Part shown: positions 2,398-45,682 of the stretch, piece after piece
How positions within the stretch are numbered: position 1 is the first letter of the stretch
Layout of the letters: every line of letters starts with the position of its first letter
Position numbers and translations under genes: made by a program
Virus record (IMG/VR): IMGVR_UViG_3300037461_001096
Coordinates: 32,001-96,000 of that record
DNA from: a virus
Length of the DNA: 64,000 nucleotides
Reading direction: 5' to 3' (one strand)
The notes under the pieces: model-generated
Databases searched by the model: none
What the model saw: only the letters and a program-made list of their open reading frames with translations
Told to the model about the DNA's origin: nothing

Positions 2398-4320
2398 TTG
2401 ATGCTGACACCATTACCGAACCAAGATATCCCGTCTAAAGGATCGTCCCGTTTAGTGGACTTTGCATGCTCGTGTGGACAAACTGCTAAGAAACCATGGA
2501 AGGCGTTCATATCAGGACATGTGAATAGTTGCGGAAAATGCAAGGTCGTCAATGCAGATGAATGGCGTCTAGCAAAGTATGGAAAACTCTGCATGCAAAA
2601 TCCCATTGACATCCATGCAAAATCCCACAAACGCGTTGCATGGATATGCGATTGTGGGGCAACGGTTGAATTGCCCGTGGTACAGGTCACATCCGGAAAA
2701 ACATCATCCTGTGGAAAATGCCACCTAGTCTTAGCTTCTGAAGCTGCAAGCATGAAGTTTGGACTCCTACGGCTAAAGCACCCGACGAACCTATCACGTG
2801 GGTCACATGTTAAAACCACTTGGGTTTGTGACTGTGGGAAAGAAACGGTGGCTGAGATCGGGAATGTGGTTCGGGGACTCACAAAATCATGTGGGAAATG
2901 CTCAGTGCTGGCAGCAGATCATTTCAAAAAGGAAAAATATGGAAAATTAAGAATGAAACAGCCTGCGGCTTTCCATCCAGGTTCAGAACAAGAAACCACT
3001 TGGGTTTGCGACTGTGGGAATGAGTTAAACACACGCGTCGGATATGTAGTATCTGGACAAATGAAGTCATGTGGATGGTGTAATGCCGTCAATGCTGAGC
3101 CGACGCCTAAATATGGTAAATTGCGGATGAAGGATCCGGCTAGATTTAAACCGGGGTCTCACGTCAAAATAACTTGGATTTGCGACTGCGGCGGAGAAAT
3201 TGTTGTACCAGTATTTAATGTGACACGAAAACTCACAACAAGCTGTGGTCGATGCCATGAGAGGGCCATGGAGTGGTATACCTCAAATAAGGGAATAATA
3301 AGAGCGCTACGCCCGCCAATATCTTGCGATCAAGTTCCTTCCGGCTTCTTGCGTGTGCTTGAACCAGTTTTAAACACTGAAAAACCTTTCTTGGTGGTAT
3401 GTGGAGCATGTAAGAATGAGTATAAACCGTCATGGGATAACATTAGGAGAGGGCATTCCTTAACATGTGGATGCTGCACGCATCGTATATCTCGTGGTCA
3501 GTCAGAATTGGCTGATTTTATTCGATCCTTGGGTGTAAGCGTTGTAGTAGAACAACGAATTGGGGACTTAACGTATGATATATCGGTGAAGTCCAAAAGT
3601 ATTCTCATTGAATATAACGGACTGAAATGGCACCAAGGTCAAAGTGGACAACGAAGAGATATGATAAAATATCGGAACGCGTTGGCTCATGGGTGGAAAT
3701 TTATTTCAATATTTGAAGACGAGTGGATCTGGCAAAGGCCAAAGATCGAATCCGTCGTCAAACATAAACTAGGGCTTTACAGCCCCATGTCCGTTAGGCC
3801 GTCCCGGTGTAGCATACAGTTAGTGCCAGCCAAAGAGGCTGATGAATTTTACGAAAAACACCATTATATAGGTCGTGCAAAAGCTCCCATTAATTATATA
3901 GTACGTTATAATGATAATCCAGTGGCTTGTATGTCGTTCAGTCACCCAACTAGACAGTCAAAGTATACTTGGGAACTCGTGCGCATGGCTTCTTGTCCAA
4001 ATGTTAGGGTGCACGGAATATGGTCCAAGTTATTCCGTAATTTTGTGGCAACTAAGGAGCCACAATCTGTGGTTAGCTTTTCCGACAACCGTCTATTTGA
4101 TGGGGGTGTTTATGAACGCCTCGGGTTTAAATTAGACGGAGAGATTCCAGCGGATTATTATTGGTGCAAGGGACAGCGGCGCTGGCATAAAAGCGGACTT
4201 AGAAAGACCCCTGAAGAACGTGAAAGCGGTTTGACAGAGTTTGAGCTTCGTACAGGGCAGGGGTACTTCCGCGTATGGGACGTCGGGAAAAAGAGGTGGG
4301 TGTGGACTTGTCCAGGTTAA
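2398..4320 (+). CDS. Hef-like homing endonuclease: Zn-ribbon repeat array + Vsr/DUF559-like PD-(D/E)xK nuclease + Mom-like GNAT domain (copy A)
   Basis: 5+1 CxCG...SCGxC repeats; nuclease motif EQRIGDLTYDI...IEYNGLKWH...IFEDEW; C-terminal HHYIG...WELVRMAS...SFSDNRLFDGGVYERLGF...VWDVGKKRW. Confidence 0.75.
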   Translation: MMLTPLPNQDIPSKGSSRLVDFACSCGQTAKKPWKAFISGHVNSCGKCKVVNADEWRLAKYGKLCMQNPIDIHAKSHKRVAWICDCGATVELPVVQVTSGKTSSCGKCHLVLASEAASMKFGLLRLKHPTNLSRGSHVKTTWVCDCGKETVAEIGNVVRGLTKSCGKCSVLAADHFKKEKYGKLRMKQPAAFHPGSEQETTWVCDCGNELNTRVGYVVSGQMKSCGWCNAVNAEPTPKYGKLRMKDPARFKPGSHVKITWICDCGGEIVVPVFNVTRKLTTSCGRCHERAMEWYTSNKGIIRALRPPISCDQVPSGFLRVLEPVLNTEKPFLVVCGACKNEYKPSWDNIRRGHSLTCGCCTHRISRGQSELADFIRSLGVSVVVEQRIGDLTYDISVKSKSILIEYNGLKWHQGQSGQRRDMIKYRNALAHGWKFISIFEDEWIWQRPKIESVVKHKLGLYSPMSVRPSRCSIQLVPAKEADEFYEKHHYIGRAKAPINYIVRYNDNPVACMSFSHPTRQSKYTWELVRMASCPNVRVHGIWSKLFRNFVATKEPQSVVSFSDNRLFDGGVYERLGFKLDGEIPADYYWCKGQRRWHKSGLRKTPEERESGLTEFELRTGQGYFRVWDVGKKRWVWTCPG

Positions 4321-4420
4321 GTCCTTGTGCACCAAGCAAAATGCTTCCTTATTTCAATTTGTTAGATGGAGTAATAACCGTCTAATTCTAGACTTGAATG
4401 AAAATTATTATGCGGGGAGC

Positions 4421-4837
4421 TTAATCATTAGGTTTAGATTTTCTTGCAGCATTGAAAGCCTGAATTGACTGCTCCCGAAGTTTTAGTCTCTCAGGAGAAG
4501 TTGGAACCACATTGTCTCCAACTTGTGTGACGGCGTGCTGCCCGGACTCCCGACGAATTTTGTCACGTTTCTCCTTTTTTTCATGGAAGTTCTTCCACTT
4601 TTCAGCCGAAGATCTCCCAACAGCCTTATCTAATGTAGGATAGTCTAAATCGTGAGAACCGGACTGACCTGGCGTTCCAGTGAATTGAAAATTTGTTGAT
4701 GACAAAACGCGCCTAGCGATGGCGTCGCATGACTTACATGGGTAAGCATGTCGATAAAGCTCAGCTTCCTTGAGGCTTATAAACACCTCTTCAAACATCG
4801 ATTCACAAGCGTCGCATATATATTCATAAGTAGGAAT
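4421..4837 (-). CDS. FmdB-family zinc-ribbon protein, probable ATT start
   Basis: Extending the frame upstream of the tracked ATG (4798) gives (M)PTYEYICDACESMFE...CKSC, the FmdB signature. ATT at 4837 lies 7 nt after AAGGAG. Confidence 0.75.
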   Translation of the reverse strand: MPTYEYICDACESMFEEVFISLKEAELYRHAYPCKSCDAIARRVLSSTNFQFTGTPGQSGSHDLDYPTLDKAVGRSSAEKWKNFHEKKEKRDKIRRESGQHAVTQVGDNVVPTSPERLKLREQSIQAFNAARKSKPND

Positions 4838-4853
4838 GGTCGGGCTCCTTGTA

Positions 4854-4877
4854 ATGTGACATTGACAAATGTCACAT
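4854..4877. promoter_or_regulatory. Perfect 10-bp inverted repeat (operator or hairpin)
   Basis: ATGTGACATT-GACA-AATGTCACAT in a divergent intergenic region. Confidence 0.5.
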
Positions 4878-4921
4878 GTTGTTAAATCAATTGTAACTAT
4901 ACTTAATAGGAAGTTTGAGAT

Positions 4922-5473
4922 ATGATTGGTATCAATTTTAAACTGAAGTTAACACTTTTTACATGCATCATTGCCTTTATGGCAAATTCAACCGGACGTT
5001 TAGAATCGACTGAACAACCTAGACTGGCTAAATATTCCAAACTAACTAGATATCCTAAACAAGTCTTTTGGTTGGCAGTAAATGGTGCAAACAGTATTGA
5101 ATTTGTTGAAATCCTAAAAGCTGCGAAGTCTTGGGAACAGGCGACGAATGGGATTATTTCATTACCAGTCTACCTAGGGAAGTCAAAAATATCGGAGTCA
5201 ACAGTATCTATACAAATGATAGACGATATTCCTAACGATGTCAATGCTGACACATGTGCAGACATTGATACTGCCACATATAGGCACATTAGAGTCTTCA
5301 GGTCTAGGTCTAAAGATTATCTATCCTGTTTTGTAGCACACGAAATTGGACATGTACTACGGAACAGTCCAACACACGATAAAACTGGGCTTATGTCAAG
5401 TTATGTAGAAAGTTGTGATATAAGCCCAGAACTCGCGAAGCAAGTAATGACACTTACCAACGCTAGTCTTTAG
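4922..5473 (+). CDS. Matrixin-like (metzincin) zinc metallopeptidase, probably secreted
   Basis: Hydrophobic N-terminus; AHEIGHVLRNSPTH zinc motif followed by Met-turn GLM. Confidence 0.7.
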   Translation: MIGINFKLKLTLFTCIIAFMANSTGRLESTEQPRLAKYSKLTRYPKQVFWLAVNGANSIEFVEILKAAKSWEQATNGIISLPVYLGKSKISESTVSIQMIDDIPNDVNADTCADIDTATYRHIRVFRSRSKDYLSCFVAHEIGHVLRNSPTHDKTGLMSSYVESCDISPELAKQVMTLTNASL

Positions 5474-5530
5474 CTCACACGAAAAACCAAATAATCCAAT
5501 TTTAGAATCGATCTATTTCGTCATTACTAC

Positions 5531-5881
5531 TCAGTCCTTTAGCATCCTTGTCATCTCTCTCAGTCCATCAATTGTTGCTGTTTTCATGCACCACATCCAA
5601 CCCTGAACAAAACCGAGCCATCGTGCGGCTTTTTGTTGATCATCCATTGACCGAATCTGTTCAAGCATCCATAACACGTGTTCTACTTCTTCCTTTATAG
5701 AGCCAGTGAATCGTGGTTCTTGTAGCAGATATGATTGCATTTGCTTGGCGCAGAGATCACGTTTCCCGTCCCTGAGTGTACTGAACCGCTCCCTAATTAC
5801 AGTGTCCATTGCGTCCGCTAGCCTAGTATTCATGGTGTTATCCTTAAAAATCTGGGGTCTCTTACGATGCGCACTAACCAC
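5531..5881 (-). CDS. Phage hypothetical protein
   Basis: Contains EHVLWML...KAARWLGFVQG, a motif familiar from small phage proteins; start uncertain. Confidence 0.6.
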   Translation of the reverse strand: MVSAHRKRPQIFKDNTMNTRLADAMDTVIRERFSTLRDGKRDLCAKQMQSYLLQEPRFTGSIKEEVEHVLWMLEQIRSMDDQQKAARWLGFVQGWMWCMKTATIDGLREMTRMLKD

Positions 5882-5986
5882 ATAATAGTTACATTTACAT
5901 TAGTGTCGGAGTTTCTTTTCTTAGAAAAACGAAAATGATCAAACCATAATTATATCTTAATTAAACGAACTCTTCGTTATTGTCTA

Positions 5987-7198
5987 TTATCTTATACGTG
6001 GGAAAGTGATCCTGCTTCCTATTGTTGTGGACATCCCGGCAACATCTATCAGGTTCCCAATTCTTAGTAGATCCAGAACAAACGATCCATCTGCGTATCC
6101 CTTAACTTGTTCTTCGGCCTTGGACGTTTGTTCAATGCGGAAGTTTTGTATAGGCAGAGGAATATATGATTCCCAATCAGTCCGCAATGTCATTGAAACA
6201 GCGCTGTCATAAAAATAGTCATCAGTTTCTGCGTTATAAATTTCTTCGGTTTCACCTCCAGGTGACACATCTAACAATTCTAATCCTTCAAACCCCCAAG
6301 CATGCTTCTTATCCATGATAGCATGGACAACATAATCCGAGAGTTTCTCCCTATCTTCAGAATCTCGGGAAAAGATTGTTAAATCAAAGTGAACTTCAAA
6401 TTTCCCGCCAAAAATTTCAGCAACGTCCACTCTGTTCTCTGTGATGACAACAACCATTTTATCACAGTCTTGTGCCCTATCCCCGAATGCCAATACGACT
6501 CCAGGGATGGCGTCAACATTGTACTTCTCTAAATCGTAGTTGAAAGGCCCGCGCTCGGGAAGGGTATACCTATAATCGGCGTCGATCGTTGCACCAGGTG
6601 GAAGTGTTTTCAAGAAGACAATACGCCCACTGTCCCAATCGACGTCATAATCCACATCTTGAAGCAAAGGTCTCCTACCGTTCAGCCAAAGCTTCATAGC
6701 CCCGTTATATAACGGTAAATTGGTTATTTGGGCTTCATCACCGGCGGGATCTGACATAATAAGTAGGGGTTCGCCATTCACAGTTGGATACGGTTTTACT
6801 GTGAATGTCCCAGGAATACTCCTGCCTCTATCAGGGACACTCTTAATTTCTATGAGATACGCCCCGGGAGGACTCGGAAATATATCCCTGCGGGGGGATA
6901 TCTGTTCTAATAGTGAAAAATTCTCACGTGCCCATTCAATAGTTGTTCCAGGCCAATCATTATAATTAGTAAGCATAACGAATGACGAATGCCGGCCTAT
7001 ATAATCATTTGCAGAAAGACCGACTCTATCGGCTGATGTTCCACTAACCACAATCCCACGCTGTGGTCTTTCTTTGAAAGAAAATTTGTTTACAACATTC
7101 TGTGAGTCGTTTCGATAGCGTGGATGTTCGTATAAGATTTGCCGGAGCTCTTGAATGATCCTTTTTTTAGTGGCGTTCGTAAGCCATGTCATCATCAT
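5987..7198 (-). CDS. Virion structural protein (tail completion/terminator-like)
   Basis: 403 aa in the late operon; Ig-like QDVDYDVDWDSGRIVF segment; FDLTIFSRDSEDREKLSD terminator-like segment. Confidence 0.5.
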   Translation of the reverse strand: MMMTWLTNATKKRIIQELRQILYEHPRYRNDSQNVVNKFSFKERPQRGIVVSGTSADRVGLSANDYIGRHSSFVMLTNYNDWPGTTIEWARENFSLLEQISPRRDIFPSPPGAYLIEIKSVPDRGRSIPGTFTVKPYPTVNGEPLLIMSDPAGDEAQITNLPLYNGAMKLWLNGRRPLLQDVDYDVDWDSGRIVFLKTLPPGATIDADYRYTLPERGPFNYDLEKYNVDAIPGVVLAFGDRAQDCDKMVVVITENRVDVAEIFGGKFEVHFDLTIFSRDSEDREKLSDYVVHAIMDKKHAWGFEGLELLDVSPGGETEEIYNAETDDYFYDSAVSMTLRTDWESYIPLPIQNFRIEQTSKAEEQVKGYADGSFVLDLLRIGNLIDVAGMSTTIGSRITFPRIR

Positions 7199-7207
7199 GG
7201 GACAAAC

Positions 7208-7435
7208 TCACCGCGTCCGACGTTTTTTCTTGCTACTTACGGATGCCTTAGAAGTTGAATTTGTGAGTGGGGCTGCTTCGGGGGCTGCTTCGGGGGCTGC
7301 TTCGGGGGCTGCTTCGGGGGCTGCTTCGGGGGCTGCTTCCTTGTCTAATGCGATCTTTCCCTGTCTGTTAAACAGGTCAATCTCAGTTAAAACATGGATG
7401 CTAACACCTTTGAAACTATCCATACTACCGCTCAT
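7208..7435 (-). CDS. Small protein with (EAAP)6 repeat and basic tail
   Basis: Fills the gap in a co-oriented operon; ends SKKKRRTR. Confidence 0.55.
   Translation of the reverse strand: MSGSMDSFKGVSIHVLTEIDLFNRQGKIALDKEAAPEAAPEAAPEAAPEAAPEAAPLTNSTSKASVSSKKKRRTR
7268..7339 (-). repeat. 12-bp tandem repeat x6 (GAAGCAGCCCCC)
   Basis: Directly visible; encodes EAAP x6. Confidence 0.95.
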
Positions 7436-7452
7436 TAATAAAGGATTCAGTT

Positions 7453-9443: not shown

Positions 9444-9444
9444 T

Positions 9445-9750
9445 CTAGCCTCCTGGCGATGCTTTCATTTGAAATGGATCCGGCGGTTGCTGTGGCTGCT
9501 GAGGCCTAATCACAACCGTGTTGTTATTGATTGTGCTAACATCACAATCTTTAACGTCAATTTCCTGAGTCTTCAAATCCTCCAATATGGCAGATTTCTT
9601 AAAATCGTATAAACCACTAATTTGGGCTTCAACTTCACGCAGTCTCATTGTTAGCTGTCCCAACTGAACAGACCAAAACATGATGGAGTTATCAATTTGG
9701 GTAATCTTTATAGAAGTTTCTTCTTTGAGTTTAACGGTTTTTGATTCCAT
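9445..9750 (-). CDS. Hypothetical coiled-coil protein
   Basis: 101 aa co-oriented ORF. Confidence 0.55.
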   Translation of the reverse strand: MESKTVKLKEETSIKITQIDNSIMFWSVQLGQLTMRLREVEAQISGLYDFKKSAILEDLKTQEIDVKDCDVSTINNNTVVIRPQQPQQPPDPFQMKASPGG

Positions 9751-9758
9751 ATACGACG

Positions 9759-10130: not shown

Positions 10131-10191
10131 GCTAAAGATAACAATGAACAGTTTAAACTGACCTTGAAGAATATGAAATGTAAAGTCAGTC

Positions 10192-11479: not shown

Positions 11480-11522
11480 AATGCACCTCCATGCTTTTAA
11501 GAGAGATTCTACTCGAGAAGAA

Positions 11523-23484: not shown

Positions 23485-25260
23485 ATGTTAACAATATCAG
23501 AAAATGAAATTCCGAGGTCACAATGGTCTACATCTCTAGTTAAATTTGATTGTTCATGCGGTCGAAAAGGGGTACTGAAACCATGGGCAAAGGTTATCAG
23601 TGGACACATAAAATCCTGTGGACAGTGCAATATACTGTTGAAACATCATTGGGAAATAACCAAATATGGCCGTTTAAGAATGACGCAGCCGTTCGATTGC
23701 AAGAGGGGGTCAAATACTCCAGTCGAATGGACATGTGACTGTGGCCGTGTCACCCTACTGCCAGTCAATAGAGTGACCAGTGGTAATACTGCATCATGCG
23801 GGAAATGCAACGAAATAGACACAGGGACTATGAGTCATTTTAAGTTTGGAAAACTTAAAATGAAATTTCCGGCTCCAGTGTCGCGCGCTTCAGGTAAACG
23901 TGTGTTGTGGGTGTGCGACTGTGGTAACGAAGTATTGGTGTCAATAATTGATGTTTTACGTGGTCACACCGCATCATGCGGGAAATGTGGTATACTGCCC
24001 CAAGAATTTTGGGAAAAAACCAAATTCGGCCGACTTCGTCTTTTACATCCGCAAAGTATGACAATTAGATCAAACCGAAAGATGGAATGGCATTGCGACT
24101 GTGGTGAAGTTTTAACGGCCGTGGTTGAAAATGTAACCACGGGGCGCACCACATGCTGTGGGAAATGCAGAAACAATGTCGACGAATGGTTTATTCAAAA
24201 TCGATCTAAAATTCGAATGATGAAACCACCAATTCAACCAAGTGACTTACCATCAGGATCTTTTACCATTCTTGATACTGTAACACGGACTGCTGACCCA
24301 ATCCGTGCCATATGCGGCGTATGTGGCGCAGAGTATTTTCCACGTTGGGACCATGTGAGATCTGGGGTGGCGTTAACCTGTGGTTGTAGCACAAATCGTG
24401 TTTCAAAAGGACAACAGGAATTGGCAGATTTTATACACAGTCTTGGCGTCAATGTGCTTGTTGAACATAAAATCGGAAAACTAGCATATGATATATTTGT
24501 ACCAGAAGCAAACATAGCAGTTGAATTTCAGGGAATAAAATGGCATTCTGTTCCGGGATCAAAACAACGTGATATGGCAAAGTATAGAAACGCCGAAAAT
24601 CACGGAGTGAGCGTAATCGCTATATTTGAAGATGAATGGCAGCTACGTCGAAAACAAATTAGTCAATTGGTTAGTAATAGACTTAGGAAGAATTTCCCAA
24701 CGCACACGCTTCGAGCGTCATCTGTGCTAATAAGACATGTGCCAAGTACTGATGCAAATAAATTTTATGAAGCATTCCACTATATTGGAAAATGTCGTGC
24801 AACAGTCAGTTACGGGGCTTTCGTCAATGATATAATGGTAGCTTGTTGTTCATTTTCTAGACCAACCAGGCAGTCATCCCATCCGTGGGAATTAGTCCGA
24901 ATGTCATCAAACTCTGATTATAGGGTACATGGTATATGGTCTAAGATCTTGCATCATTTTATTAATGATTTCCATCCGACGTCAATTGTATCATTTTCAG
25001 ATAATCGAGTATTTGTTGGCCGTGTTTATGACAAACTCGGGTTCAAACATGACGGAAACGTTCCACAAAGTTATTACTGGGCAAAGGGTGGCAAAAGATT
25101 CAACAAATCTGGCTTACGTAAACATGGCCTGGAACGTAATAGTCAAGTAACAGAAACACAATTACGTGAGTTTCAAGGATTCAACAAAATATGGGACCTT
25201 GGTAAAAAGCGTTGGGTGTGGCGAAGTCAACTACAGGAGATAACAACTAAAACAACGTAA
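23485..25260 (+). CDS. Hef-like Zn-ribbon array + Vsr/DUF559-like nuclease + Mom-like GNAT (copy B)
   Basis: 4+1 repeats; YDIFVPEANIAVEFQGIKWH...IFEDEW; FHYIG...WELVRMSS...SFSDNRVFVGRVYDKLGF...IWDLGKKRW. Confidence 0.75.
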   Translation: MLTISENEIPRSQWSTSLVKFDCSCGRKGVLKPWAKVISGHIKSCGQCNILLKHHWEITKYGRLRMTQPFDCKRGSNTPVEWTCDCGRVTLLPVNRVTSGNTASCGKCNEIDTGTMSHFKFGKLKMKFPAPVSRASGKRVLWVCDCGNEVLVSIIDVLRGHTASCGKCGILPQEFWEKTKFGRLRLLHPQSMTIRSNRKMEWHCDCGEVLTAVVENVTTGRTTCCGKCRNNVDEWFIQNRSKIRMMKPPIQPSDLPSGSFTILDTVTRTADPIRAICGVCGAEYFPRWDHVRSGVALTCGCSTNRVSKGQQELADFIHSLGVNVLVEHKIGKLAYDIFVPEANIAVEFQGIKWHSVPGSKQRDMAKYRNAENHGVSVIAIFEDEWQLRRKQISQLVSNRLRKNFPTHTLRASSVLIRHVPSTDANKFYEAFHYIGKCRATVSYGAFVNDIMVACCSFSRPTRQSSHPWELVRMSSNSDYRVHGIWSKILHHFINDFHPTSIVSFSDNRVFVGRVYDKLGFKHDGNVPQSYYWAKGGKRFNKSGLRKHGLERNSQVTETQLREFQGFNKIWDLGKKRWVWRSQLQEITTKTT

Positions 25261-25478: not shown

Positions 25479-26090
25479 TTATGTTTGTCGGACGAGGATA
25501 GCAGACTCGAGCATAATGCCGAATAATGCAGATAATTGAACACTGAACGGCCATGAATTTTTTGACATCTTAATTTGCTCATGACGTAAATCGGAAACCA
25601 TTCGTTCATAAAATGGGCCGACACTTTTGTTTCCACGCATCCATTCACGAACCATATATTGTTGTAAAGACATAAAGTCGGCAGTCTTAACGACCGCCAT
25701 AATGTAATCATGCTCGTCATCTTCTTCATCTGCACATAGTTGTTGTAGTGCTGAAGGCAAGGACGCCATCATGTTAGCTTCTGCTTCAGAAATAGCAGAA
25801 CGAAGCTTTTCTGATGAATATTTAAAAGTTCGTACAAAGTCCCCAGTCCAACCTTCTATGAGGTCATGTGTAGCTGCCATAGTCATAATCCTTCCAAGCA
25901 AATGTTTATCAGATGGTCGAATAGTTGAATGAATCAGTGCCGCGTATAATCCAACCCAGTATTGATGGGTACTAACAAGTTCGTGAACAACTACTGGAAT
26001 GCTGCTAAACCGAACAACATCGTCTAATCGACGAACGTCTCCTGTAGCTGCTTCGAACATAGCTTTAAGATTTTCTAAAATATTTTCCAT
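25479..26090 (-). CDS. HD-domain phosphohydrolase, YfbR/DatZ-like
   Basis: RFS...ELVSTHQY...THDLIEGWTGD...VKTAD. Confidence 0.8.
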   Translation of the reverse strand: MENILENLKAMFEAATGDVRRLDDVVRFSSIPVVVHELVSTHQYWVGLYAALIHSTIRPSDKHLLGRIMTMAATHDLIEGWTGDFVRTFKYSSEKLRSAISEAEANMMASLPSALQQLCADEEDDEHDYIMAVVKTADFMSLQQYMVREWMRGNKSVGPFYERMVSDLRHEQIKMSKNSWPFSVQLSALFGIMLESAILVRQT

Positions 26091-27133: not shown

Positions 27134-27844
27134 ATGATACATTCTGTTAAAAAAGGTCAAATCATAACTTTCAGGGGAAATATATATATGGTTACCGATG
27201 TCAGTGATGCATTTAACCTCCTATGGCTAACGCCTAAGCCACAGGGGGAGGGCATGTGTGATGGTGTATACTGCAAGTCGACGGTGATGAAAGAAGCAGA
27301 CATCTTTACCTCAAAGTATACAAAGTTAGAAATTGACGCGATACTTGATGAACTTCGCTTGCTCCTCGAAAATTCATCTAAGGAAAGGGCATTATCTGAT
27401 AACAACAGTGGCCGAAAAATCCAGGAAGCCTTGAGATTACGTGTCGAACAGCTCGAAAAAGAACGCGATCTCGCTCCAAGTGATATTTTTTCAGCTACTG
27501 TCGAATCGCATAAAATCTTATGTGATGTCAAGCAGATGGGAGAGAAGGAAGCCTATGGGCAAGACCCAGCCTTCTATTACGGATCAGCCATTAGTGGCGA
27601 GGCCGGTGAAATGGTCAACAAAATGATAAAAGCTCTCAGGAACGGAGGTGATGCTACGAACAGGTTATTTGAGGCTGTAGTTTCTGAATTACCAGATATA
27701 TGTATCTACTCATTTGTACTAGCCTATGTACTTGACATTGACCTTACACATTTAGTATCAGAGAAGGCAAAAATAGTTATCCAAAGAGCAAAAAATGGGT
27801 ATTACGGCGGGCCCCTGGTCAGAACAACGCCAGATTGCACTTAG
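27134..27844 (+). CDS. Protein with a C-terminal MazG-like NTP pyrophosphohydrolase domain
   Basis: SGEAGEMVNKMIK...SELPDICIY (ExxE...ExxD). Confidence 0.7.
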   Translation: MIHSVKKGQIITFRGNIYMVTDVSDAFNLLWLTPKPQGEGMCDGVYCKSTVMKEADIFTSKYTKLEIDAILDELRLLLENSSKERALSDNNSGRKIQEALRLRVEQLEKERDLAPSDIFSATVESHKILCDVKQMGEKEAYGQDPAFYYGSAISGEAGEMVNKMIKALRNGGDATNRLFEAVVSELPDICIYSFVLAYVLDIDLTHLVSEKAKIVIQRAKNGYYGGPLVRTTPDCT

Positions 27845-27859
27845 CAATTTGAAGCAAGC

Positions 27860-29656
27860 ATGAATTTTAGTGTATGGCTTACAGAGTTTGTTAAATCCGG
27901 AAGTAATGAAATAAATGGGAATCTATTACTGTCAGTAATAGATCCAAACGGGAAATTCACTCAGTTAATTAAAGTGAAATGTAAATGTGGGGCTATTAGA
28001 ACAGTGTCCCTGTATGCATTTATATCACAAAATAAACAGGTTACTTGTGGTCGTTGCCATCTGTCAAAAATAAAAGAATCTGGTCAAACAACCTTTAATA
28101 ACTTAACCATCTTAAGTAACCTCGAAGAGTCTCGCGGATCTGATAGAGTTAAAGTTAAATGTTCATGCGGGAACGTTGTAGACAACGTCATTTTGCGACA
28201 GGTGTTCGCTGGTAATAAAAAGTCATGCGGATCATGCTCAGTGAACAAAGTCAAAAAATTTGGTCAAACCAAATTTGATAAACTACTAATACTGACACCC
28301 CTTGATTCGATCAAATTAATCTCTCAAAAAGTTGATGTTATATGTGACTGCGGGAACAAAGTTAAAGTTATTTATAGAAATTTAGTCACAGGTAATAGTA
28401 AGAGTTGTGGAAAATGTGAACTATTTTCATTGAAACAATCAGGGGTTGTTAAATGGGGGAGGCTGTCACTTATTGATGACCCATCAACGCTCAAATCATT
28501 GAGTCAACAAACCAGTTTCTTGTGTAATTGTGGGAGAGTTACACGGTTAAAATTATACAACGTTGTTTCTGGCCACACCACAACTTGTGGGAAATGTTAT
28601 GAACAAGTGAGGGCAGCGTTTGATAATCGAAAAGAAGAATTCAAAGAAATGCAGTTCCCAATTCCTCCAGGGAAGTTATTCGGGGTTATAGAATTCAAAA
28701 ATACCATATATAGTAGCAATACGAAATTAGATGCTAAATGTCCAATATGTAATAATAAATGGGCACCCGCATTCAAAGACATTAAGAGAGGTTATTCGCT
28801 AAGTTGTGGATGTTCACTTCATATTACGTCGGGACCACAAAGAGAAATCTTTGAACATATCATATCGACTGGTTTTGAAGCAATGTGTGAGGCTCGCATA
28901 GGCGGATTGAAATATGACATATTCATACCGTCTGCTTCTCTTGCTATTGAATATCATGGTCTCAAGTGGCATTCAACAGATTCAAGCAGGCGTTCTGACC
29001 TAAATAAATATAAAACTGCCATTGCCAGTGAGATTGATCTCATGGTAGTATACGAAGATGAATGGGAAAATAAAAGAAAACAGATTTGCGACATAATTAA
29101 TAACAGATTGAACGTAGCAAAGACAAAGTTTAGAATACGTCCTTCTAGATGTAGAATACTACACATTTCGAGTAATGCAGCTGACACATTCTATGATCAA
29201 AATCATTATATTGGAAAGACTTGTTCTAACATGAATATATGTGCCGAGTTTGATGGAAAAATTATTGCATGTATGTCTTTTAAACACCCAAATAGGCAGT
29301 CAAAATACACATTCGAGTTAACTAGAATGGCGTCTGACCTGGATTTTCGTGTTCATGGTATTTGGTCAAAACTTTTCAAAAAATTTGTGAATGAAACCAG
29401 TCCAGAATCGATCGTCTCATTTTCAGATAACAGACTTTTTACTGGAAAAGTATATGAAAAACTTGGGTTCAAATTTGATGGGAACGTAAAGCCTGATTAT
29501 TATTGGGCGAAAGGAAGACGTAGATTTAATAAATCTGGACTGAGAAAACCCCTGGGAACTATTGAAACAGAACAAGATCTACGCACGAGTCAGGGTTTTT
29601 TTAAAATTTGGGATCTAGGTAAAAAGAGATGGGTGTGGAAAACTCCCGAAAAATAG
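27860..29656 (+). CDS. Hef-like Zn-ribbon array + Vsr/DUF559-like nuclease + Mom-like GNAT (copy C)
   Basis: 4+1 repeats; YDIFIPSASLAIEYHGLKWH...YEDEW; NHYIG...FELTRMAS...SFSDNRLFTGKVYEKLGF...IWDLGKKRW; AT-rich. Confidence 0.75.
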   Translation: MNFSVWLTEFVKSGSNEINGNLLLSVIDPNGKFTQLIKVKCKCGAIRTVSLYAFISQNKQVTCGRCHLSKIKESGQTTFNNLTILSNLEESRGSDRVKVKCSCGNVVDNVILRQVFAGNKKSCGSCSVNKVKKFGQTKFDKLLILTPLDSIKLISQKVDVICDCGNKVKVIYRNLVTGNSKSCGKCELFSLKQSGVVKWGRLSLIDDPSTLKSLSQQTSFLCNCGRVTRLKLYNVVSGHTTTCGKCYEQVRAAFDNRKEEFKEMQFPIPPGKLFGVIEFKNTIYSSNTKLDAKCPICNNKWAPAFKDIKRGYSLSCGCSLHITSGPQREIFEHIISTGFEAMCEARIGGLKYDIFIPSASLAIEYHGLKWHSTDSSRRSDLNKYKTAIASEIDLMVVYEDEWENKRKQICDIINNRLNVAKTKFRIRPSRCRILHISSNAADTFYDQNHYIGKTCSNMNICAEFDGKIIACMSFKHPNRQSKYTFELTRMASDLDFRVHGIWSKLFKKFVNETSPESIVSFSDNRLFTGKVYEKLGFKFDGNVKPDYYWAKGRRRFNKSGLRKPLGTIETEQDLRTSQGFFKIWDLGKKRWVWKTPEK

Positions 29657-29775: not shown

Positions 29776-30492
29776 TTAGAATCCACGGTGTAACAGGGCG
29801 TCATTGATCTCAGCCACGATGGTGCGTGCGGCGTCAGCGGGGGATGAGGCGTCGCGGATCGGGCGGCCGATGACAAGCACATCGGCGCCATCGCTGATCG
29901 CGGATGCGGGCGTGGCGACACGTTTCTGGTCCTGGGTGGATGAGCCGGAAGGCCTGATGCCCGGAGTGATGAAAAACGCGGCAGCACCGAGGGCCTGGCG
30001 CAGGCTACGCACCTCGCGTGGGGAGCAAACGAAGGCGCGAACCCCGACGCTCCATGCCATGCGCGCAAGGTGAAGCACCTGGTCGGTGGACGAGCGAGTA
30101 CAGCCGATCGCCGACAGGTCACCATCGTCAAGGGAGGTTAGAACGGTAACGCCGACGACACGAAGGCCGGTGGCTTCGCGCGCGGCTCGAGAGACGGCGT
30201 GCTGGAGCATGGCAGGGCCGCCGGAGGTATGCACCGTGAGCAGATGAACGCCCATCGCGCAGGCGTTCGCGACGGCGCGTTCGACGGTGGCGGGGATGTC
30301 GTGGAGTTTCAGGTCGAGGAACACGTCGAATCCAGCGTCTCTGAGCTCGCGGGAGGCAGCAGGCCCCTCCCGGGTGAACATTTCAAGGCCGATCTTGGCG
30401 TAGCCGACGTGAGGGGCGAGCGAAGGCAGCAACTCACGCGCCGCAGCGAGCGAGGGGTAATCAAGAGCGAAGGCAAGGTGGTGCTTCGTCAT
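29776..30492 (-). CDS. pyrF: Orotidine-5'-phosphate decarboxylase in a high-GC island
   Basis: FALD, AKIGLE, FLDLKLHDIPATV, GVTVLTS, TPGIRP, DQKR, VIGRPI; probable start MTKHH at 30492. Confidence 0.95.
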   Translation of the reverse strand: MTKHHLAFALDYPSLAAARELLPSLAPHVGYAKIGLEMFTREGPAASRELRDAGFDVFLDLKLHDIPATVERAVANACAMGVHLLTVHTSGGPAMLQHAVSRAAREATGLRVVGVTVLTSLDDGDLSAIGCTRSSTDQVLHLARMAWSVGVRAFVCSPREVRSLRQALGAAAFFITPGIRPSGSSTQDQKRVATPASAISDGADVLVIGRPIRDASSPADAARTIVAEINDALLHRGF

Positions 30493-30673
30493 GGGACACC
30501 GATGGGGTTGAAGGTTGGGGCGCGGCAGACTAAAGGTAGGAGCACATCGGGTCACCTTCGATGTACATATAAGTGGACCCGGGACTGCTAGGCCTCCTGC
30601 TGGAGTCATCATGATTCATAGCCCCTAGTGTGCTGAAGACACACGTCATGACCAAAAGAGCTATATAAGGGTG

Positions 30674-37924: not shown

Positions 37925-37933
37925 TAGTTATAC

Positions 37934-40807: not shown

Positions 40808-40893
40808 CCTTTTTGGTGTACTGGTTTGTACACTTCTAAAAACATTACATTTTATCTAGCAGTGTTAACGGAGTGTGCTAGGTAACGTTCAGC

Positions 40894-41799
40894 GTGAATT
40901 TTGGAGACCCATATGAAATTCTCGGTGTATCTCTCGGAGCAAGCCTAGAAGAGATAAAAAAAGCATATAAGAGACTTGCAACTCAATTACATCCAGATGC
41001 GGGGGGCGACCCAGCTGAATTTAGAAAATTGACAGACGCGTATAACACGCTTCGAGAAAAAATCGAATCCAAAGAATCAGATCCGATTTTTTGCGAAGAT
41101 GCTTCTGTGACGTTAGAATTAACACTCGAAGAAATGGCTTTCGGATGTCAAAAGTATATTTCAGTAAAAATCGGGAAGATTTTATGCAAGACATGTTCTG
41201 GAAGCGGGGCCATGGCTGGGTCACCAATGATGCCTTGTATCTCATGTTTAGGAACTGGTAAAATTCCAAGTGCATGGGGGTTCAGAACTTCAGACAGAAG
41301 TTGTTCAACTTGTCGGGGTGCTGGCACAACTCCAGCACAGAAATGTCGATCGTGTCTTGGGAAGGGAACGACAGAAGGCGACGCTTCTGTACGTGTGAAT
41401 ATTCCGCCCGGGGTGGAACACGGACAGGGGTTATGCTTTTCTGGTAATTTAGGTGGATTCCAGGGTCGGCTTTTCGTGACCATTATCGGACTACCACATG
41501 ATAGGTTTGAACGAATTGGAAACGACATAGTTACCCAGCATAAAATTGGGGTATGTGAAGCAATAATCGGAGCTTCTGGCTCGACAACTGGACTAGATGG
41601 ACAAGGATTGGGTTTCAAAATTAGGCCGGGGACACAATCAGGAGAGCGTATAATTGTAACGGGGGCTGGGATTCGAAACTCCCAAACGGGTCAAATCGGT
41701 GATTTGATAATCATTGCCAAAATAGAGGTACCAAATAAACTGACACCGCGGGCTATGAAACTTGTTGAAGAGTTATCCGATGCGCTCACCCGCAAATAA
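40894..41799 (+). CDS. dnaJ: DnaJ-like chaperone lacking the G/F region
   Basis: DPYEILG...LHPD; four CxxCxGxG repeats; C-terminal PGTQSG domain. Confidence 0.85.
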   Translation: MNFGDPYEILGVSLGASLEEIKKAYKRLATQLHPDAGGDPAEFRKLTDAYNTLREKIESKESDPIFCEDASVTLELTLEEMAFGCQKYISVKIGKILCKTCSGSGAMAGSPMMPCISCLGTGKIPSAWGFRTSDRSCSTCRGAGTTPAQKCRSCLGKGTTEGDASVRVNIPPGVEHGQGLCFSGNLGGFQGRLFVTIIGLPHDRFERIGNDIVTQHKIGVCEAIIGASGSTTGLDGQGLGFKIRPGTQSGERIIVTGAGIRNSQTGQIGDLIIIAKIEVPNKLTPRAMKLVEELSDALTRK

Positions 41800-42253
41800 C
41801 GACATACCGTGAATCACGCCAAGCCATCACTATATCTTTAACTAATTCTTGTGCTGCAGACATGCTGTTGGTGAAATTATCCGGGTCAGTGACATAATAG
41901 TCCCAACATTTTGGGAAACTTTTATTTTTGCCAACAAATTGTGTCGTGCAGCTGGCATTTGCTGACGCGCAGCTTTTAAAGCTAGAACAAATTGGCTTGT
42001 CGATTTTCATGAGTGCACCAATGGGGGGAGTCTTCAACAACTTTTCCAGGGGTTTGGTGTGTCCGATTTTGGCATCGTCCATGACGTTTGGTGGAGCCTT
42101 TGTACATAATGCTAAAATTGGGGCTATAGCACGTTTTGCGTTTGGGTCTGAAAAAGCCCTAGCACACCATGAGTCCAACGCTCCCACCACAACTTCTGAA
42201 ATTGCAAGTTTCTCGCCGGTTGATAAAACCAGTGAATATTCAAACGTATACAT
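41786..42253 (-). CDS. Hypothetical Cys-containing protein
   Basis: 155 aa, coupled to the primase zinc-finger gene. Confidence 0.5.
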   Translation of the reverse strand: MYTFEYSLVLSTGEKLAISEVVVGALDSWCARAFSDPNAKRAIAPILALCTKAPPNVMDDAKIGHTKPLEKLLKTPPIGALMKIDKPICSSFKSCASANASCTTQFVGKNKSFPKCWDYYVTDPDNFTNSMSAAQELVKDIVMAWRDSRYVVICG

Positions 42254-42848
42254 CCTGTTTTACTCCGCCCATCATGTTTCTAAGCTTGGATAAGGCTATG
42301 GACATCTGAGGTAAAGGCTGGCCACCGTTATGATCCAAGTCCCACCTGATGGCATCAAGGATTCTACACCATTTTATGTAATCAGTCATGGGTACGCTGT
42401 TTCGTAAGCGCAATAATTTTGCTTCCAGCATATCCATGACTCGCGGAATGTCGTCCCATGCCTTTGATTGATACTGTCCGTTTCTATCTTCCGGGGCCTC
42501 AATATCAGTTTCTGGACGACGAGGAACTTTAATATTGAATCGGCGTTCAAGTTCAGACAAAGCCCCCATAAACTTCAGATTATGAAGTTTCCCAAAGATA
42601 TCAATCCCCCGCATATGAAGTTTGCATGTAAAACAATGAAAATGCGGGTCCTGACCGGCATAATACCTTGCCGACGGGGTGTTGTCCGGCCCATGCCATG
42701 GGCACCGTATTTGTAACTCTGTATCTTTATCTATCAGCTCGATCCCTGCTTCGAGCATAGCGTCGTATGTGGTGTACTTCTTAGACACTGCGTTTACACG
42801 TGCTTTTATCCATTCTCGATCGTCTATTGTAGACGGTCTGTTTCTCAT
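42240..42848 (-). CDS. Stand-alone CHC2 primase zinc-binding domain protein
   Basis: CPWHGPDNTPS...FHCFTC. Confidence 0.8.
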   Translation of the reverse strand: MRNRPSTIDDREWIKARVNAVSKKYTTYDAMLEAGIELIDKDTELQIRCPWHGPDNTPSARYYAGQDPHFHCFTCKLHMRGIDIFGKLHNLKFMGALSELERRFNIKVPRRPETDIEAPEDRNGQYQSKAWDDIPRVMDMLEAKLLRLRNSVPMTDYIKWCRILDAIRWDLDHNGGQPLPQMSIALSKLRNMMGGVKQDVYV

Positions 42849-43459
42849 GGAAAAACAGCTGTTGGGAAGTTTCCCGTATAGTCAGCTTCAACAGTGTTAT
42901 AACTAACTGTTAGCTTTCCAAGCTCCCGGCAAGTTGGGCGTAGCTGGTGCATGCACCATCCTTGCTCTGGCTCTTGGACCTTAAGGGAGGATCGCCAAAA
43001 GCGTTCTATATGGGATAGGGTATACAGCATGTCTGCCGGAGGATCTGAAGCCCCAACATACAACCCCGGTGTATGGCCTTCCTGCTTAATAGCATAACTC
43101 CACGAGTCTACCCATTCACACGTCTTTTCGTTCGAAGCATTATGGCCGTTAAGGTTCAACCAAACTGTCATCGGGGGCAGCTTCAATTTATCGATTGTGA
43201 TTAGTGCAATGTTTGCGTCTTGAGCCCCAACACTTGAACTTGGAACCCAACCTGGGGCTCTAAATGGAGTAGAAATCATTAGCCCTAGGCCCGAGTTAAT
43301 AATCGTGGCAACTTCATCATTTGTTAGCCCGTACTTCCCATGAAGATGTCGTACAACAAAGGAAACATGTGAAACTCGAAGCATGTTACAGGCTGAAGCA
43401 TCGAGCCTGCACACTGTATCAATTCCAACTGACGGTGGATTTACTGGTTTAACTTGCAT
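42845..43459 (-). CDS. DUF1906/GH25-like glycoside-hydrolase-fold protein, possibly inactive
   Basis: GIDT...FVVRHL...LTNDEVATIINSGLGLM...VWLNLNG...PGLYVG. Confidence 0.6.
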   Translation of the reverse strand: MQVKPVNPPSVGIDTVCRLDASACNMLRVSHVSFVVRHLHGKYGLTNDEVATIINSGLGLMISTPFRAPGWVPSSSVGAQDANIALITIDKLKLPPMTVWLNLNGHNASNEKTCEWVDSWSYAIKQEGHTPGLYVGASDPPADMLYTLSHIERFWRSSLKVQEPEQGWCMHQLRPTCRELGKLTVSYNTVEADYTGNFPTAVFP

Positions 43460-43542
43460 GTTGTCTCCGTATTTCTAACGATTATGGTCACACTCCAGTG
43501 TAACTAAGCAATAACACAAGTCTACATTCCGTTTTTACAGCA

Positions 43543-43920
43543 TTAAGTTAGCATCACTTCTTCGATTAAAACAACCTCGCATCCATTCATCGGGTGTGAT
43601 CCTCCATATGTGATAGCCGAGCATTTTGGGCATCTATATACCATAACTGCCATGTGCTTACTAGGCCCTTTTGCACTTAATTTAAATTTATTCTTTGAGA
43701 CTAGACTAACCTCCACTTCGGCCAGATTGACAAAGTCTTCGACTGCCATACACGCATCGACAAATGCCTGCTTTAGTGGCGTATCGATACCGTTTCCAGT
43801 AAGACCTGGAGCGATGTCGATGTCTGATTTATACTTGCGATTCCAAAATTTACCGTTGAATTTCATGCCTCTGTCTACTTGTGATAGGCTAAAATTTACG
43901 GCTAAATCACGAGATCTCAA
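43543..43920 (-). CDS. Hypothetical protein with a C-terminal Zn site
   Basis: CPKC...H....C; ends IEEVMLT. Confidence 0.55.
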   Translation of the reverse strand: MRSRDLAVNFSLSQVDRGMKFNGKFWNRKYKSDIDIAPGLTGNGIDTPLKQAFVDACMAVEDFVNLAEVEVSLVSKNKFKLSAKGPSKHMAVMVYRCPKCSAITYGGSHPMNGCEVVLIEEVMLT

Positions 43921-43924
43921 ATTG

Positions 43925-45682
43925 TCATTTGTTCAGCAGATCACACCATCTCCATCTGGTTTTTCCATAATCCCAGATTTTTGTATATCCCTGGTTTCTT
44001 CTAAAACTGTTTTCAGTTTCATAACATCCTTCCGGCTTTCTAAGTGATGACTTGTGGTGTCTAACTCTATTTTTCACCCAATAGTAATCAGGACGTATTT
44101 GACCATCGTTACGAAATCCCATTAGCTCATAAACACGACCCGTAAACAGCCTGTTATCCGAAAATGTTATTATCGACTGTACGCCATTTGATTTCGTAAA
44201 CAATTGCAAAATTTTAGACCAAATACCATGTACATGATATTTGGGGTTCATAGCCATTCTTGAGATTTCATATTCGCCAAAGCATTTCTGGCGCACAGGC
44301 TTACGGAATGAAATACACCCTATCAACTCTTCGGCGTGAAAAACTCCGTAGTGAATCGAAGATGGTGCACCGCCAATATAATGGAATTGTTCATAAAACT
44401 CGAAGGCATACTTGGCAGAAAGTACTTTAATAACACAATTGTTTGGACGAATTTTCTTAGGTTTATTGCAGCCAAGTCTATTGGCTATGATTGACTTCAT
44501 TATATCGCATTTCTTTTCCCATTCATCTTCAAACAAAACGATTATGTTATATCCGTTTTCTTTCGCCAATGCGAATTTTCTGGCATCCCTTTGACGGGAT
44601 AAGACCCCGGAGTGCCATCTCAAACCATTGAGTTCTATAAGCAATTTTTTGTCTGGAATGGCTATATCGTACGGGACACCATTCACCAAAAATTCACATA
44701 TAACATTTTCCCCGATAGATTTTATGAACTCTGCCAACTGTCGATTCCACCTGGGAATCGTGTCATTCGTACACCCACATGTGAGTGAAATACCACGTTT
44801 TATGGAGTGAAGGTACGGACGATATGTGTTTGAACAAGCTGGACAGATTGCCTTAAATGAGTCCGTTGTGTTGAAAACCACTTCTAATGGAACAACACCT
44901 CCAGGAGGAAAATCAGCTTTTGAAGCCGGGCATTTTATACCACGGATCTTCTCTTTGTTTTCTTCATACCATAAATCAACCAGAGTATGACACAGCCCAC
45001 ACTTTGTGGTAACGCGTCTAGTTATACTACCTATTTGAATGTTCTTAACGACGCCACAACGACACTTAAAAGGAAGTTTTTTCTTGCTTCCTGGTGACAC
45101 AGTCGCTGATTCGCCATAATAAGTGAAATCAAAATACTCTTGACCGTGTTCGAGAAAGATTTCGTTGCATCTCCCACAAGTTTTGGCTAGTCCAGTAGTA
45201 ACTGTTCTTATCGATCTCTCACTAGACTTACCGCATTTACACTGAAACAATAGTTTATTCGGAGAATTTGCAAACACTTCAACAGTTTGACCTAGATACT
45301 TAAATCCAAAATATTCGTCGCCGTGTTTCAACGAGATTTTTGAACATTTACCACAGCTTCTGATTTTACCATTGAAAACGAGTTTTGCCTGGACTGTCTT
45401 ATCATTTCCACACGAACATCTGAACTGAATTAATTTATTACTACCAGCACTTATCTTGATATCCTGTCCGAGGTATGCCAGACTTCCGTACGTGTCTTTG
45501 TGTTTTAAAGTCACGTCATTGCAATGACCACATGTTTTCTGGCCATTTGATATATTGGCCACTTTTGCGGTAAACACGTGACCACACATACACTTAAATA
45601 ACAGTTTTTTAGAACTCTTCGGATTTATTTCTATCGGATCTCCAACATAGGAGAAGTTTCCATACGTTATACTATGAGTCAA
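43925..45682 (-). CDS. Hef-like Zn-ribbon array + Vsr/DUF559-like nuclease + Mom-like GNAT (copy D)
   Basis: 4+1 repeats; YDIAIPDKKLLIELNGLRWH...LFEDEW; FHYIG...YEISRMAM...TFSDNRLFTGRVYELMGF...IWDYGKTRW; probable TTG start at 45682 (frame open to 45763). Confidence 0.75.
   Translation of the reverse strand: MTHSITYGNFSYVGDPIEINPKSSKKLLFKCMCGHVFTAKVANISNGQKTCGHCNDVTLKHKDTYGSLAYLGQDIKISAGSNKLIQFRCSCGNDKTVQAKLVFNGKIRSCGKCSKISLKHGDEYFGFKYLGQTVEVFANSPNKLLFQCKCGKSSERSIRTVTTGLAKTCGRCNEIFLEHGQEYFDFTYYGESATVSPGSKKKLPFKCRCGVVKNIQIGSITRRVTTKCGLCHTLVDLWYEENKEKIRGIKCPASKADFPPGGVVPLEVVFNTTDSFKAICPACSNTYRPYLHSIKRGISLTCGCTNDTIPRWNRQLAEFIKSIGENVICEFLVNGVPYDIAIPDKKLLIELNGLRWHSGVLSRQRDARKFALAKENGYNIIVLFEDEWEKKCDIMKSIIANRLGCNKPKKIRPNNCVIKVLSAKYAFEFYEQFHYIGGAPSSIHYGVFHAEELIGCISFRKPVRQKCFGEYEISRMAMNPKYHVHGIWSKILQLFTKSNGVQSIITFSDNRLFTGRVYELMGFRNDGQIRPDYYWVKNRVRHHKSSLRKPEGCYETENSFRRNQGYTKIWDYGKTRWRWCDLLNK

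Follow-up and report, generated by a model that had tools for sequence, protein, structure and literature searches.

Among the mobile genes of large phages, the Hef-like ones rank with the most common, and two separate literatures cover them, one as "homing endonucleases" and the other as "momylation plus restriction" enzymes. We analyzed a set of such genes, each joining a nuclease to a C-terminal domain of the Mom type (nuclease-Mom genes), in a 64,000-nucleotide stretch of virus DNA. This stretch (the window) comprises bases 32001 to 96000 of IMG/VR record IMGVR_UViG_3300037461_001096, a 139,067-bp single contig with a CheckV completeness of 33%. All eight C-terminal domains encoded in the record are homologous to one another and to Mom of phage Mu. 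We tentatively favor the view that these are selfish homing nuclease genes in which an active Mom transferase would mark an adenine at the gene's own target and so spare the carrier.

The hef gene of the T-even phage U5 is described in a review, which cites Sandegren et al. 2005, as encoding an enzyme that cuts nrdB (PMC2988022), and Taylor et al. 2011 report that bacteriophage Hef-type homing endonucleases belong to the Vsr-like EDxHD family (PMC3239194). Named Hef-like members are those of AR9, PBS1, PA5oct, the Campylobacter phages CP30A, CP81, and CPX, and Dickeya LIMEstone (F-LimIII, F-LimVII, F-LimVIII, and F-LimX). Four genes of the window resemble U5 Hef and these members from end to end (PHROG families 559 and 3339), in being free-standing and multicopy, and in adjoining conserved genes, but they share only 24 to 31% identity with the members from cultured phages and differ in the number of Zn-ribbon units. 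The prototype of the EDxHD family, I-Bth0305I (PDB 3R3P), shares the nuclease fold and the D, N/H/Q, H, and D positions with the genes studied here; it differs in being intron encoded, in carrying N-terminal NUMOD/helix-turn-helix (HTH) modules, and in ending at the nuclease without a Mom domain, as reported for this enzyme (PMC3239194).

Fusions of a restriction endonuclease (REase) to Mom were described in jumbo phages, five of them in PA5oct, by Iyer, Anantharaman, Krishnan, Burroughs, and Aravind (Iyer et al. 2021, Viruses 13:63), with the reading that momylation shields the phage and the nuclease is turned against host DNA or that of a superinfecting phage (PMC7824862). The genes studied here likewise combine a nuclease with a Mom-family GNAT domain and occur in several copies in a jumbo-phage genome; what goes beyond that description is that their places vary between relatives. 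An earlier note on the window, made from its sequence, had put forward a cut-and-protect mobile system, and for this idea both the REase-Mom fusion and the restrict-and-protect reading had been in print since 2021 (PMC7824862). The main text of that paper does not mention Hef, homing, or an HNH-Mom fusion (PMC7824862), and the Hef-like gene papers examined do not use the name Mom or GNAT for the C-terminal domain.

Mu Mom (PDB 8BV8) is reported to transfer glycine from Gly-tRNA(Gly) to the N6 of adenine in double-stranded DNA, its donor being glycyl-tRNA(Gly) and not acyl-CoA (Silva et al. 2026; PMC13219725). The same report gives H58, Y59, R111, S124, D149, R151, and Y159 as its active site, with R111, S124, D149, and R151 essential or nearly so and with detectable in vivo activity abolished in R151A (PMC13219725); Karambelkar et al. 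2020 had named the identical residues in a numbering shifted by ten (PMC7261163). Because Mu Mom uses Gly-tRNA(Gly), missing acyl-CoA binding would not speak against a Mom-like activity, and the earlier note, which had taken such a lack as a refutation, used a criterion that is now outdated (PMC13219725). Mu Mom is a stand-alone protein of ∼230 residues from a temperate phage, whereas the domain studied here forms the C-terminal third of a nuclease.

Type IIG and IIL enzymes such as MmeI and BcgI have a DNA reader, a nuclease, and a base modifier in one chain; the modifier is an S-adenosylmethionine-dependent methyltransferase, and the enzymes serve cellular defense. In the present genes the place of the modifier is taken by a Mom-family GNAT domain and the genes are mobile phage elements, the likeness being one of logic only. 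No methyltransferase domain is found among the Pfam matches of the eight proteins.

Source of the window and its nuclease-Mom genes

When 50 kb of window sequence was compared with 50,697 phage records by megablast, there were zero near-identity matches, and by this comparison the phage is one without a close cultured relative. The closest relative found, G001 (locus L003), is a complete phage contig of 362,524 bp with terminal repeats. Its proteins are mostly 50 to 80% identical to those of the window and their order is largely collinear; given a collinear relative of this size, the window is a piece of an uncultured jumbo phage. A more distant relative, G002, is 240 kb long and 56% complete. 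No tRNA genes were found in the window. Of three public runs of wetland metagenomes identified, one is probably the source and two carry short identical pieces at a depth of 2 to 3, and the assembled contigs of the wetland runs, in which rare variants are invisible, contain no joint that bypasses a nuclease gene.

The earlier note had listed six open reading frames (ORFs) that join a nuclease to a Mom-like domain. All six are intact, with no stops in translation and with the architectures described there. Six is the count inside the window; for the whole record, tblastn of the six proteins on the 139-kb contig brought it to eight, in four architectures. Positions below are those of the window unless given as genome positions.

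P0001: 2398..4320, plus strand; 640 residues; Hef-type, with five Zn-ribbon units, a Vsr-like EDxHD nuclease, and a Mom-type GNAT domain
P0002: 23485..25260, plus strand; 591 residues; Hef-type, with four Zn-ribbon units, a Vsr-like nuclease, and a Mom-type domain
P0003: 27860..29656, plus strand; 598 residues; Hef-type; GC content, 0.359
P0004: 43925..45688, minus strand; Hef-type; GC content, 0.391; ORF open to 45763
P0005: 16207..17835, minus strand; 542 residues; N-terminal Zn-ribbon and helical region, two endonuclease VII-type HNH modules, and a Mom domain
P0006: 19039..20742, plus strand; 567 residues; second twin-HNH plus Mom gene; GC content, 0.361; antisense to both neighbors
P0007: genome positions 27372-29057, outside the window; Zn-ribbons, DUF559/Vsr-like nuclease, and a Mom domain (Pfam E value, 6e-21)
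P0008: genome positions 98550-100460, outside the window; Zn-ribbon, W-x-D-P-x-Y-R-type repeats, Vsr-like nuclease, and a Mom domain (E value, 1e-22)
Zn-ribbon arrays: 2398-3300, 23485-24200, 27860-28620, and 44700-45688

Matches between paralogues have E values of 1e-107 to 1e-165 (1e-81 for P0005 versus P0006), and hence these are homologous genes and not chance motifs. The C-terminal motifs HY, ELxR, SFSDNR, and VY that the note had read in the Hef-type genes are present, except that P0004 has EIxR and TFSD; P0005 and P0006 do contain two CxxC..DH..CxxCN HNH modules and a domain with HHY, ELDRFC, SFAD, and GHxGTIY. In P0001 the nuclease occupies residues ∼365 to 455 and the Mom-type GNAT domain residues ∼465 to 640 (nucleotides 3790-4317), and the Mom domain of P0005 covers residues ∼345 to 542. 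The number of CxCG...CGxC Zn-ribbon units is five in P0001, four each in P0002, P0003, and P0004, and three to five in the G001 genes. Pfam DUF4379 matched three of the four Hef-type genes above its cutoff, with no DUF4379 match for P0003. The start of P0004 is most likely the GTG at 45688, rather than 45763 or 45682, because the longer ORF would overlap the helicase stop at 45699-45701.

Between the Zn-ribbon and the nuclease of P0008 (L002:2550-4460), residues ∼70 to 320 form a long array of short W-x-D-P-x-Y-R helical repeats, for which a GerD-like stretch is the only Pfam match (E = 1e-7). This array may be a modular DNA-reading head other than the Zn-ribbon arrays.

The C-terminal domain is of the Mom type

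In Foldseek searches, Mu Mom (8BV8) was the rank 1 match of both subtypes of the domain, with E values of 4.7e-7 for the Hef-like model and 3.4e-12 for the P0005 model (predicted local distance difference test [pLDDT], 90.4); ordinary acetyltransferases begin at 2.8e-5 and 1.3e-5, respectively. The two subtypes are homologous, as an hhalign comparison of a Hef-like profile with a twin-HNH-Mom profile gave 98.7% (E = 3e-16) over 170 columns up to the C terminus. The earlier prediction of a GNAT-fold, Mom-type domain thus holds. P0006 aligned directly to Mu Mom (8bv8_A) in HMMER with an E value of 8e-4. Pfam Mom (PF25680; gathering cutoff, 27.1 bits) matched P0004 (31.2 bits), P0005 (92.8 bits; E = 3e-26), P0006 (88.8 bits; E = 5e-25), P0007 (75.5 bits), and P0008 (81.1 bits), and the other C-terminal Pfam matches in the four Hef-type genes are weak ones to GNAT or Mom.

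In VIA, Mom is distinguished from other GNATs by the aligned length alone, 154 residues versus ∼130. The VIA alignment spans Mom residues 37 to 223. Mom has an HTH-like insertion (residues ∼175 to 209) that is essential for its activity; both models have two to three short helices ahead of the last two strands, two of which may lie at the place of this insertion. The sequence identity to Mu Mom is 13 to 21%, and the dimer residue W48 is not kept in P0006.

All eight proteins have equivalents of H58, Y59, R111, S124, D149, and Y159, and P0001 to P0005 have that of R151 as well. We extended this count to 163 Hef-like proteins (4 from the window and 159 from database searches), in which the equivalents are kept in 163 (H58), 162 (Y59), 163 (R111), 157 (D149), 162 (R151), and 162 (Y159) proteins, with S or T at the S124 position in 141.

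The Mom part is also the most conserved part of the protein in 8/8 orthologue or paralogue pairs. Between P0003 and its positional counterpart in G001, for example, the identity rises from 25% across the Zn-ribbons through 36% for the nuclease to 58% for Mom. The Zn-ribbon arrays are least conserved in three comparisons of P0001 with paralogues (27 to 44% identity), and in the P0001/G001 orthologue pair the nuclease is less conserved than the Zn-ribbon part (56% versus 61%). Low conservation of the Zn-ribbons would fit a head that sets the target specificity. The overall pattern looks like that expected of an enzyme rather than of a mere spacer; it does not reveal the substrate.

The nuclease of the Hef-type genes

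The profile of phrog_559 spans residues 34 to 637 of the four Hef-type proteins (E = 7e-71 to 7e-81, the latter for P0001), and phrog_3339, annotated as homing endonuclease, matched the same four with E values of 1e-54 to 2e-62. This full-length similarity concerns P0001 to P0004, with P0005 and P0006 outside it. By tblastn, 408 phage records were matched, at up to 11 places per genome, and the matches reach the nuclease and the C-terminal domain of genes named "Hef-like homing endonuclease" in AR9, PBS1, PA5oct, and Campylobacter phages; one search for Hef-like proteins yielded 427 relatives at an E value of ≤1e-5 among 1,015 scored candidates. Judged by these similarities, P0001, P0002, P0003, and P0004 are ordinary members of the Hef family.

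The nuclease of the four genes gave a below-cutoff match to Pfam REase_MTES_1575. A profile of 64 family members matched the catalytic domain of I-Bth0305I (3r3p_A) with an E value of 4.6e-5, and the match lines up the catalytic D, N, H, and D. Residues 331 to 640 of P0001 were modeled with AlphaFold (pLDDT, 92.8; predicted template modeling score, 0.83), and this model superimposed in VIA on 3r3p_A with a Z score of 13.1 and a root mean square deviation of 2.4 over 93 of 97 residues, and on Vsr (1cw0) with a Z score of 12.6. In the set of 163 proteins, the catalytic positions are kept in 163 (D), 162 (H), 159 (second D), and 154 (N/H/Q).

PADLOC defense-system models gave 0 families for seven of the eight proteins, and the sole match of the remaining one, P0004, is to the "homing endonuclease" model (E = 1.5e-5). 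The closest full-length database homologue of P0004 is 56% identical. Viral contigs contain 4 loci with homologues of P0004, at ≤49% identity, and metagenome contigs contain 9, with 34% for the full-length ones and a maximum of 58% over a 108-residue fragment; among these viral and metagenome contigs, none is near enough for a slot comparison.

The twin-HNH genes

Each HNH module of P0005 and P0006 has four Cys and a D-H pair, which are kept in 35/35 aligned homologues; in P0005 these are C135, C138, D149, H150, C184, and C187 and C256, C259, D270, H271, C308, and C311. PHROG endonuclease VII and HNH families matched the two proteins with E values of 1e-9 to 9e-26. Pfam HNH stayed below its cutoff for P0005 (16.8 versus 21.4) and gave no match for P0006. 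Among 70 non-self database matches of P0005, 33 span at least 93% of the protein, with 30 to 62% identity, and some of the contigs that carry full-length homologues are 320 to 430 kb long. In cultured-phage records, 0 of 146 reach 80% coverage of the full twin-HNH plus Mom architecture. A twin-HNH-Mom fusion was not found in the literature searched, which leaves aside the supplements of Iyer et al. 2021, where HNH-Mom fusions may be listed. The twin-HNH form is a variant for which we found no printed description.

Exchange of modules

A maximum-likelihood tree of 21 Mom domains from this phage and G001 has two deep clades with 100/100 support each. The first holds 12 Hef-type genes, and the second holds five genes with a Vsr-like nuclease that Pfam supports (P0007, P0008, and three of G001) together with four twin-HNH genes; among the latter we classed G001_122425 by BLASTP against P0005, which matched the N-terminal portion of its product to the twin-HNH region (31% identity over 486 columns). 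The four HNH genes cluster together (82/67), and the clade that they form with the P0008 group has a support of 96/99. Over 190 residues of the Mom domain, P0008 shares 48% identity with P0006; the rest of the two proteins is unrelated.

This tree could be accounted for by a single swap in which the nuclease module changed and the Mom module stayed the same. The earlier note had assigned a Mom subtype of its own to each of two unrelated nucleases and had read this as selection for coupling. The coupling is indeed recurrent, but the second subtype is joined to both twin-HNH and Vsr-like nucleases. One genome thus offers a natural experiment, with the same Mom subtype behind two unrelated nucleases and a second subtype besides, and with the catalytic residues intact this argues that the nuclease-Mom pairing itself may have been selected.

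Places of the genes in relatives

The slot comparison rests on one informative relative, G001, which has 13 nuclease-Mom genes, 8 with the Hef subtype and 5 with the second subtype. Same-slot counterparts exist there for four of the eight genes. Those of P0002 and P0005 have the same orientation and 63% and 60% identity, respectively; that of P0001 (G001 134113-136026) is 62% identical and lies in the same intergenic slot, inverted relative to the conserved flanks; and the slot of P0003 holds a Hef-type gene whose N-terminal two thirds are 25 to 36% identical. P0004, P0006, P0007, and P0008 have no such counterpart. P0004 is absent from the helicase-downstream slot of G001/L003, where 216 nucleotides separate the helicase from the next conserved gene, against ∼2.85 kb here; P0006 has no orthologue in G001, its closest match there being a 34%-identical paralogue; and P0007 lies at the border of a rearrangement. 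In the other direction, a Hef-type gene of G001 at 38.4 to 40.2 kb stands where this genome has an unrelated 444-residue ORF.

With four genes lacking a same-slot counterpart and one of the four shared genes inverted, the nuclease-Mom genes are mobile, and the earlier suggestion that they are free-standing and not fixed in synteny is upheld. In the four genes that lack a close syntenic orthologue, the GC content is 0.359 to 0.391 versus 0.434 for the genome, and 1 alone among 27 other long ORFs has so low a value.

In the segment around P0004 the following features were seen.

43908..43918: downstream copy of an 11-bp direct repeat that brackets P0004, GAGATCTCGTG on the minus strand, beginning 7 nucleotides after the P0004 stop
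45686..45696: upstream copy of the repeat, overlapping the GTG start of P0004, 2 nucleotides after the helicase stop
42845-43459, minus strand: Rv2525c-like glycoside-hydrolase-like ORF (E = 1e-6), in the segment that G001 lacks
∼43560-43880, minus strand: 107-residue ORF that carries a CPxC motif, in the same segment absent from G001

The repeat is exact and includes the palindrome AGATCT. Repeats of at least 11 bp occurred in 17 of 2,000 random window pairs, for which the modal repeat length was 7 bp. At the other seven genes, flanking direct repeats are 6 to 8 bp only, which is chance level, and for P0008 no 12-mer with ≤2 mismatches was found within 80 nucleotides of the ends.

Neighboring genes and a rearranged block

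The note had described the genes as often antisense to their neighbors, which applies to three of the six (those at 2398, 19039, and 23485, antisense to both neighbors), and as sitting next to sheath, adaptor, and helicase genes. The helicase is confirmed; the labels "sheath" and "adaptor" are unconfirmed, the neighbors tested being without a PHROG or Pfam family.

The DnaB-like helicase gene (45699-49214, minus strand) contains an insert of ∼298 residues at 47628-48521 that is absent from the L003 and L004 orthologues. Pfam matches of this insert to Intein_splicing (E = 2e-17) and LAGLIDADG_3 (E = 1e-8) show it to be an intein with its own homing endonuclease, adjoining P0004. Directly after P0003 lies an orotidine-5′-phosphate decarboxylase gene (29776-30612, minus strand; OMPdecase, E = 4e-50) with no counterpart in G001, and near P0003 two further genes have matches, the one at 25479-26090 to a dATP triphosphohydrolase family and the one at 27134-27844 to a MazG-like pyrophosphatase family.

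A block of ∼31 kb at genome positions 27.3 to 57.3 kb (up to ∼25260 in the window) corresponds to 128.9 to 159.9 kb of G001 and separates genes that are adjacent in G001 (45.6 and 46.2 kb). Its borders are the nuclease-Mom genes P0007 and P0002, the latter at the right edge, and the best G001 match of P0007 lies ∼5 kb past the right end of the block in G001. These borders bring to mind a report in which the boundaries of genetic exchange are marked by nuclease genes (PMC10448857).

Discussion

The genes described here belong to an already described type, the twin-HNH variant aside. In the reading that we tentatively favor, a variable Zn-ribbon array would read DNA and a Vsr-like EDxHD nuclease would cut the genomes of co-infecting relatives without the gene, whereupon repair would copy the gene in, which is homing as published for U5 Hef. 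The DNA-reading head would also deliver an active Mom transferase to the nuclease's own target site, where the Mom domain would mark an adenine and the carrier genome would be spared. Such a cut-or-mark logic would be like that of a single-chain type IIG enzyme, with an acyl or aminoacyl mark replacing the methyl group. The donor of the Mom domain, whether aminoacyl-tRNA as for Mu Mom or acyl-CoA, is not readable from the sequence. A wider proposal is that Mom-type domains are site-directed DNA adenine acyl- or aminoacyl-transferases that provide epigenetic self-immunity to cut-or-mark elements with an interchangeable nuclease, Vsr-like or twin HNH, joined to an unchanging marking module; we regard this as possible, though somewhat unlikely.

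Several observations weigh against self-marking by homing genes. To our knowledge, bulk liquid chromatography-mass spectrometry studies of ViI-like and Campylobacter phages, which have many Hef-like genes, reported no modified adenine, and therefore marking would be rare and site-specific. The slots are not simple either. The extra 2.85 kb at P0004 contains two more ORFs besides the nuclease gene, and the P0008 slot in G001 is not empty but holds another ORF and one that is nucleoside-diphosphate-kinase-like, as labeled by eye from its N-terminal motif; the sites of P0004 and P0008 are variable slots rather than clean single-gene insertions. DNA alignment of the P0004 region with the G001/L003 slot gave chance-level matches of 9 to 16 bp, and no junction or target site is definable, because the closest relative is only ∼60 to 70% identical in protein. 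As to the domain, Pfam Mom is below its cutoff for P0003 (15.2 bits) and gives no match at an E value of ≤0.1 for P0001 and P0002, and the VIA Z score of Mom (13.1) is tied with those of ordinary acetyltransferases (13.3 and 13.2). Among the active-site positions, the R151 equivalent is missing in three of the eight proteins (A, T, and T in P0006, P0007, and P0008), and the S124 position is neither S nor T in 22 of the 163 Hef-like proteins.

The last two points would also fit a Mom-type domain that modifies nothing and serves as a DNA clamp, a base-flipping reader, or a dimerization module, or that acts on protein or tRNA, an explanation that we consider unlikely. For homing endonucleases, such as those of T4 seg and mob, differences in the target sequence are normally protection enough, which supports it further. 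Mu Mom is reported to bind DNA tightly (∼0.2 nM; PMC7261163) and to be dimeric, with adenine flipping modeled only (PMC13219725), and I-Bth0305I-type nucleases are reported to act as dimers (PMC3239194). A pure binder, however, would not be expected to keep H58, Y59, R111, R151, and Y159 in 162 to 163 of 163 proteins, nor to be the slowest-evolving part in all eight pairs. Another explanation follows the proposal made for the jumbo-phage REase-Mom fusions (Iyer et al. 2021; PMC7824862), namely a weapon like a restriction-modification system, in which the Mom domains would momylate the genome broadly, the nucleases would degrade unmodified host or superinfecting DNA, and the genes would be kept for defense or attack. 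The catalytic residues kept in both halves are in line with it, and many paralogues with varied DNA-reading heads (8 in 139 kb; 13 in G001) could give several specificities. Yet presence, place, and orientation vary between relatives and some of the genes deviate in GC content, which is the pattern of selfish homing and not of a core defense; G002 has no PF25680 match at all in its 240 kb (56% complete); the long, multiunit Zn-ribbon heads would suggest long and rare targets; and a review presents the prototype Hef as a homing endonuclease that cuts nrdB (PMC2988022). We thus hold a weapon of this kind to be distinctly unlikely.

Very improbable, in our view, is that the genes are domesticated, immobile, and vertically inherited and now benefit the phage in a process such as replication, recombination, or packaging. 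P0001, P0002, and P0005, at 60 to 63% identity in the same slots of G001, do come near the 66 to 80% of the flanking genes and have a normal GC content, but the P0001 counterpart is inverted, the other five genes behave differently, and the two phages differ widely in how many copies they have and where.

The Gly-tRNA donor chemistry reported for Mu Mom in 2026 makes a direct assay of the Mom domains possible (PMC13219725). If the wider proposal holds, a few adenines at particular positions of a phage genome would be hypermodified with an amino acid taken from tRNA, too rare to be seen in bulk analysis, and homing nucleases could target perfectly conserved sequences. Marking would then be a new route by which selfish nucleases avoid self-cutting, and the genes would be a source of programmable, site-specific DNA-acylating enzymes.

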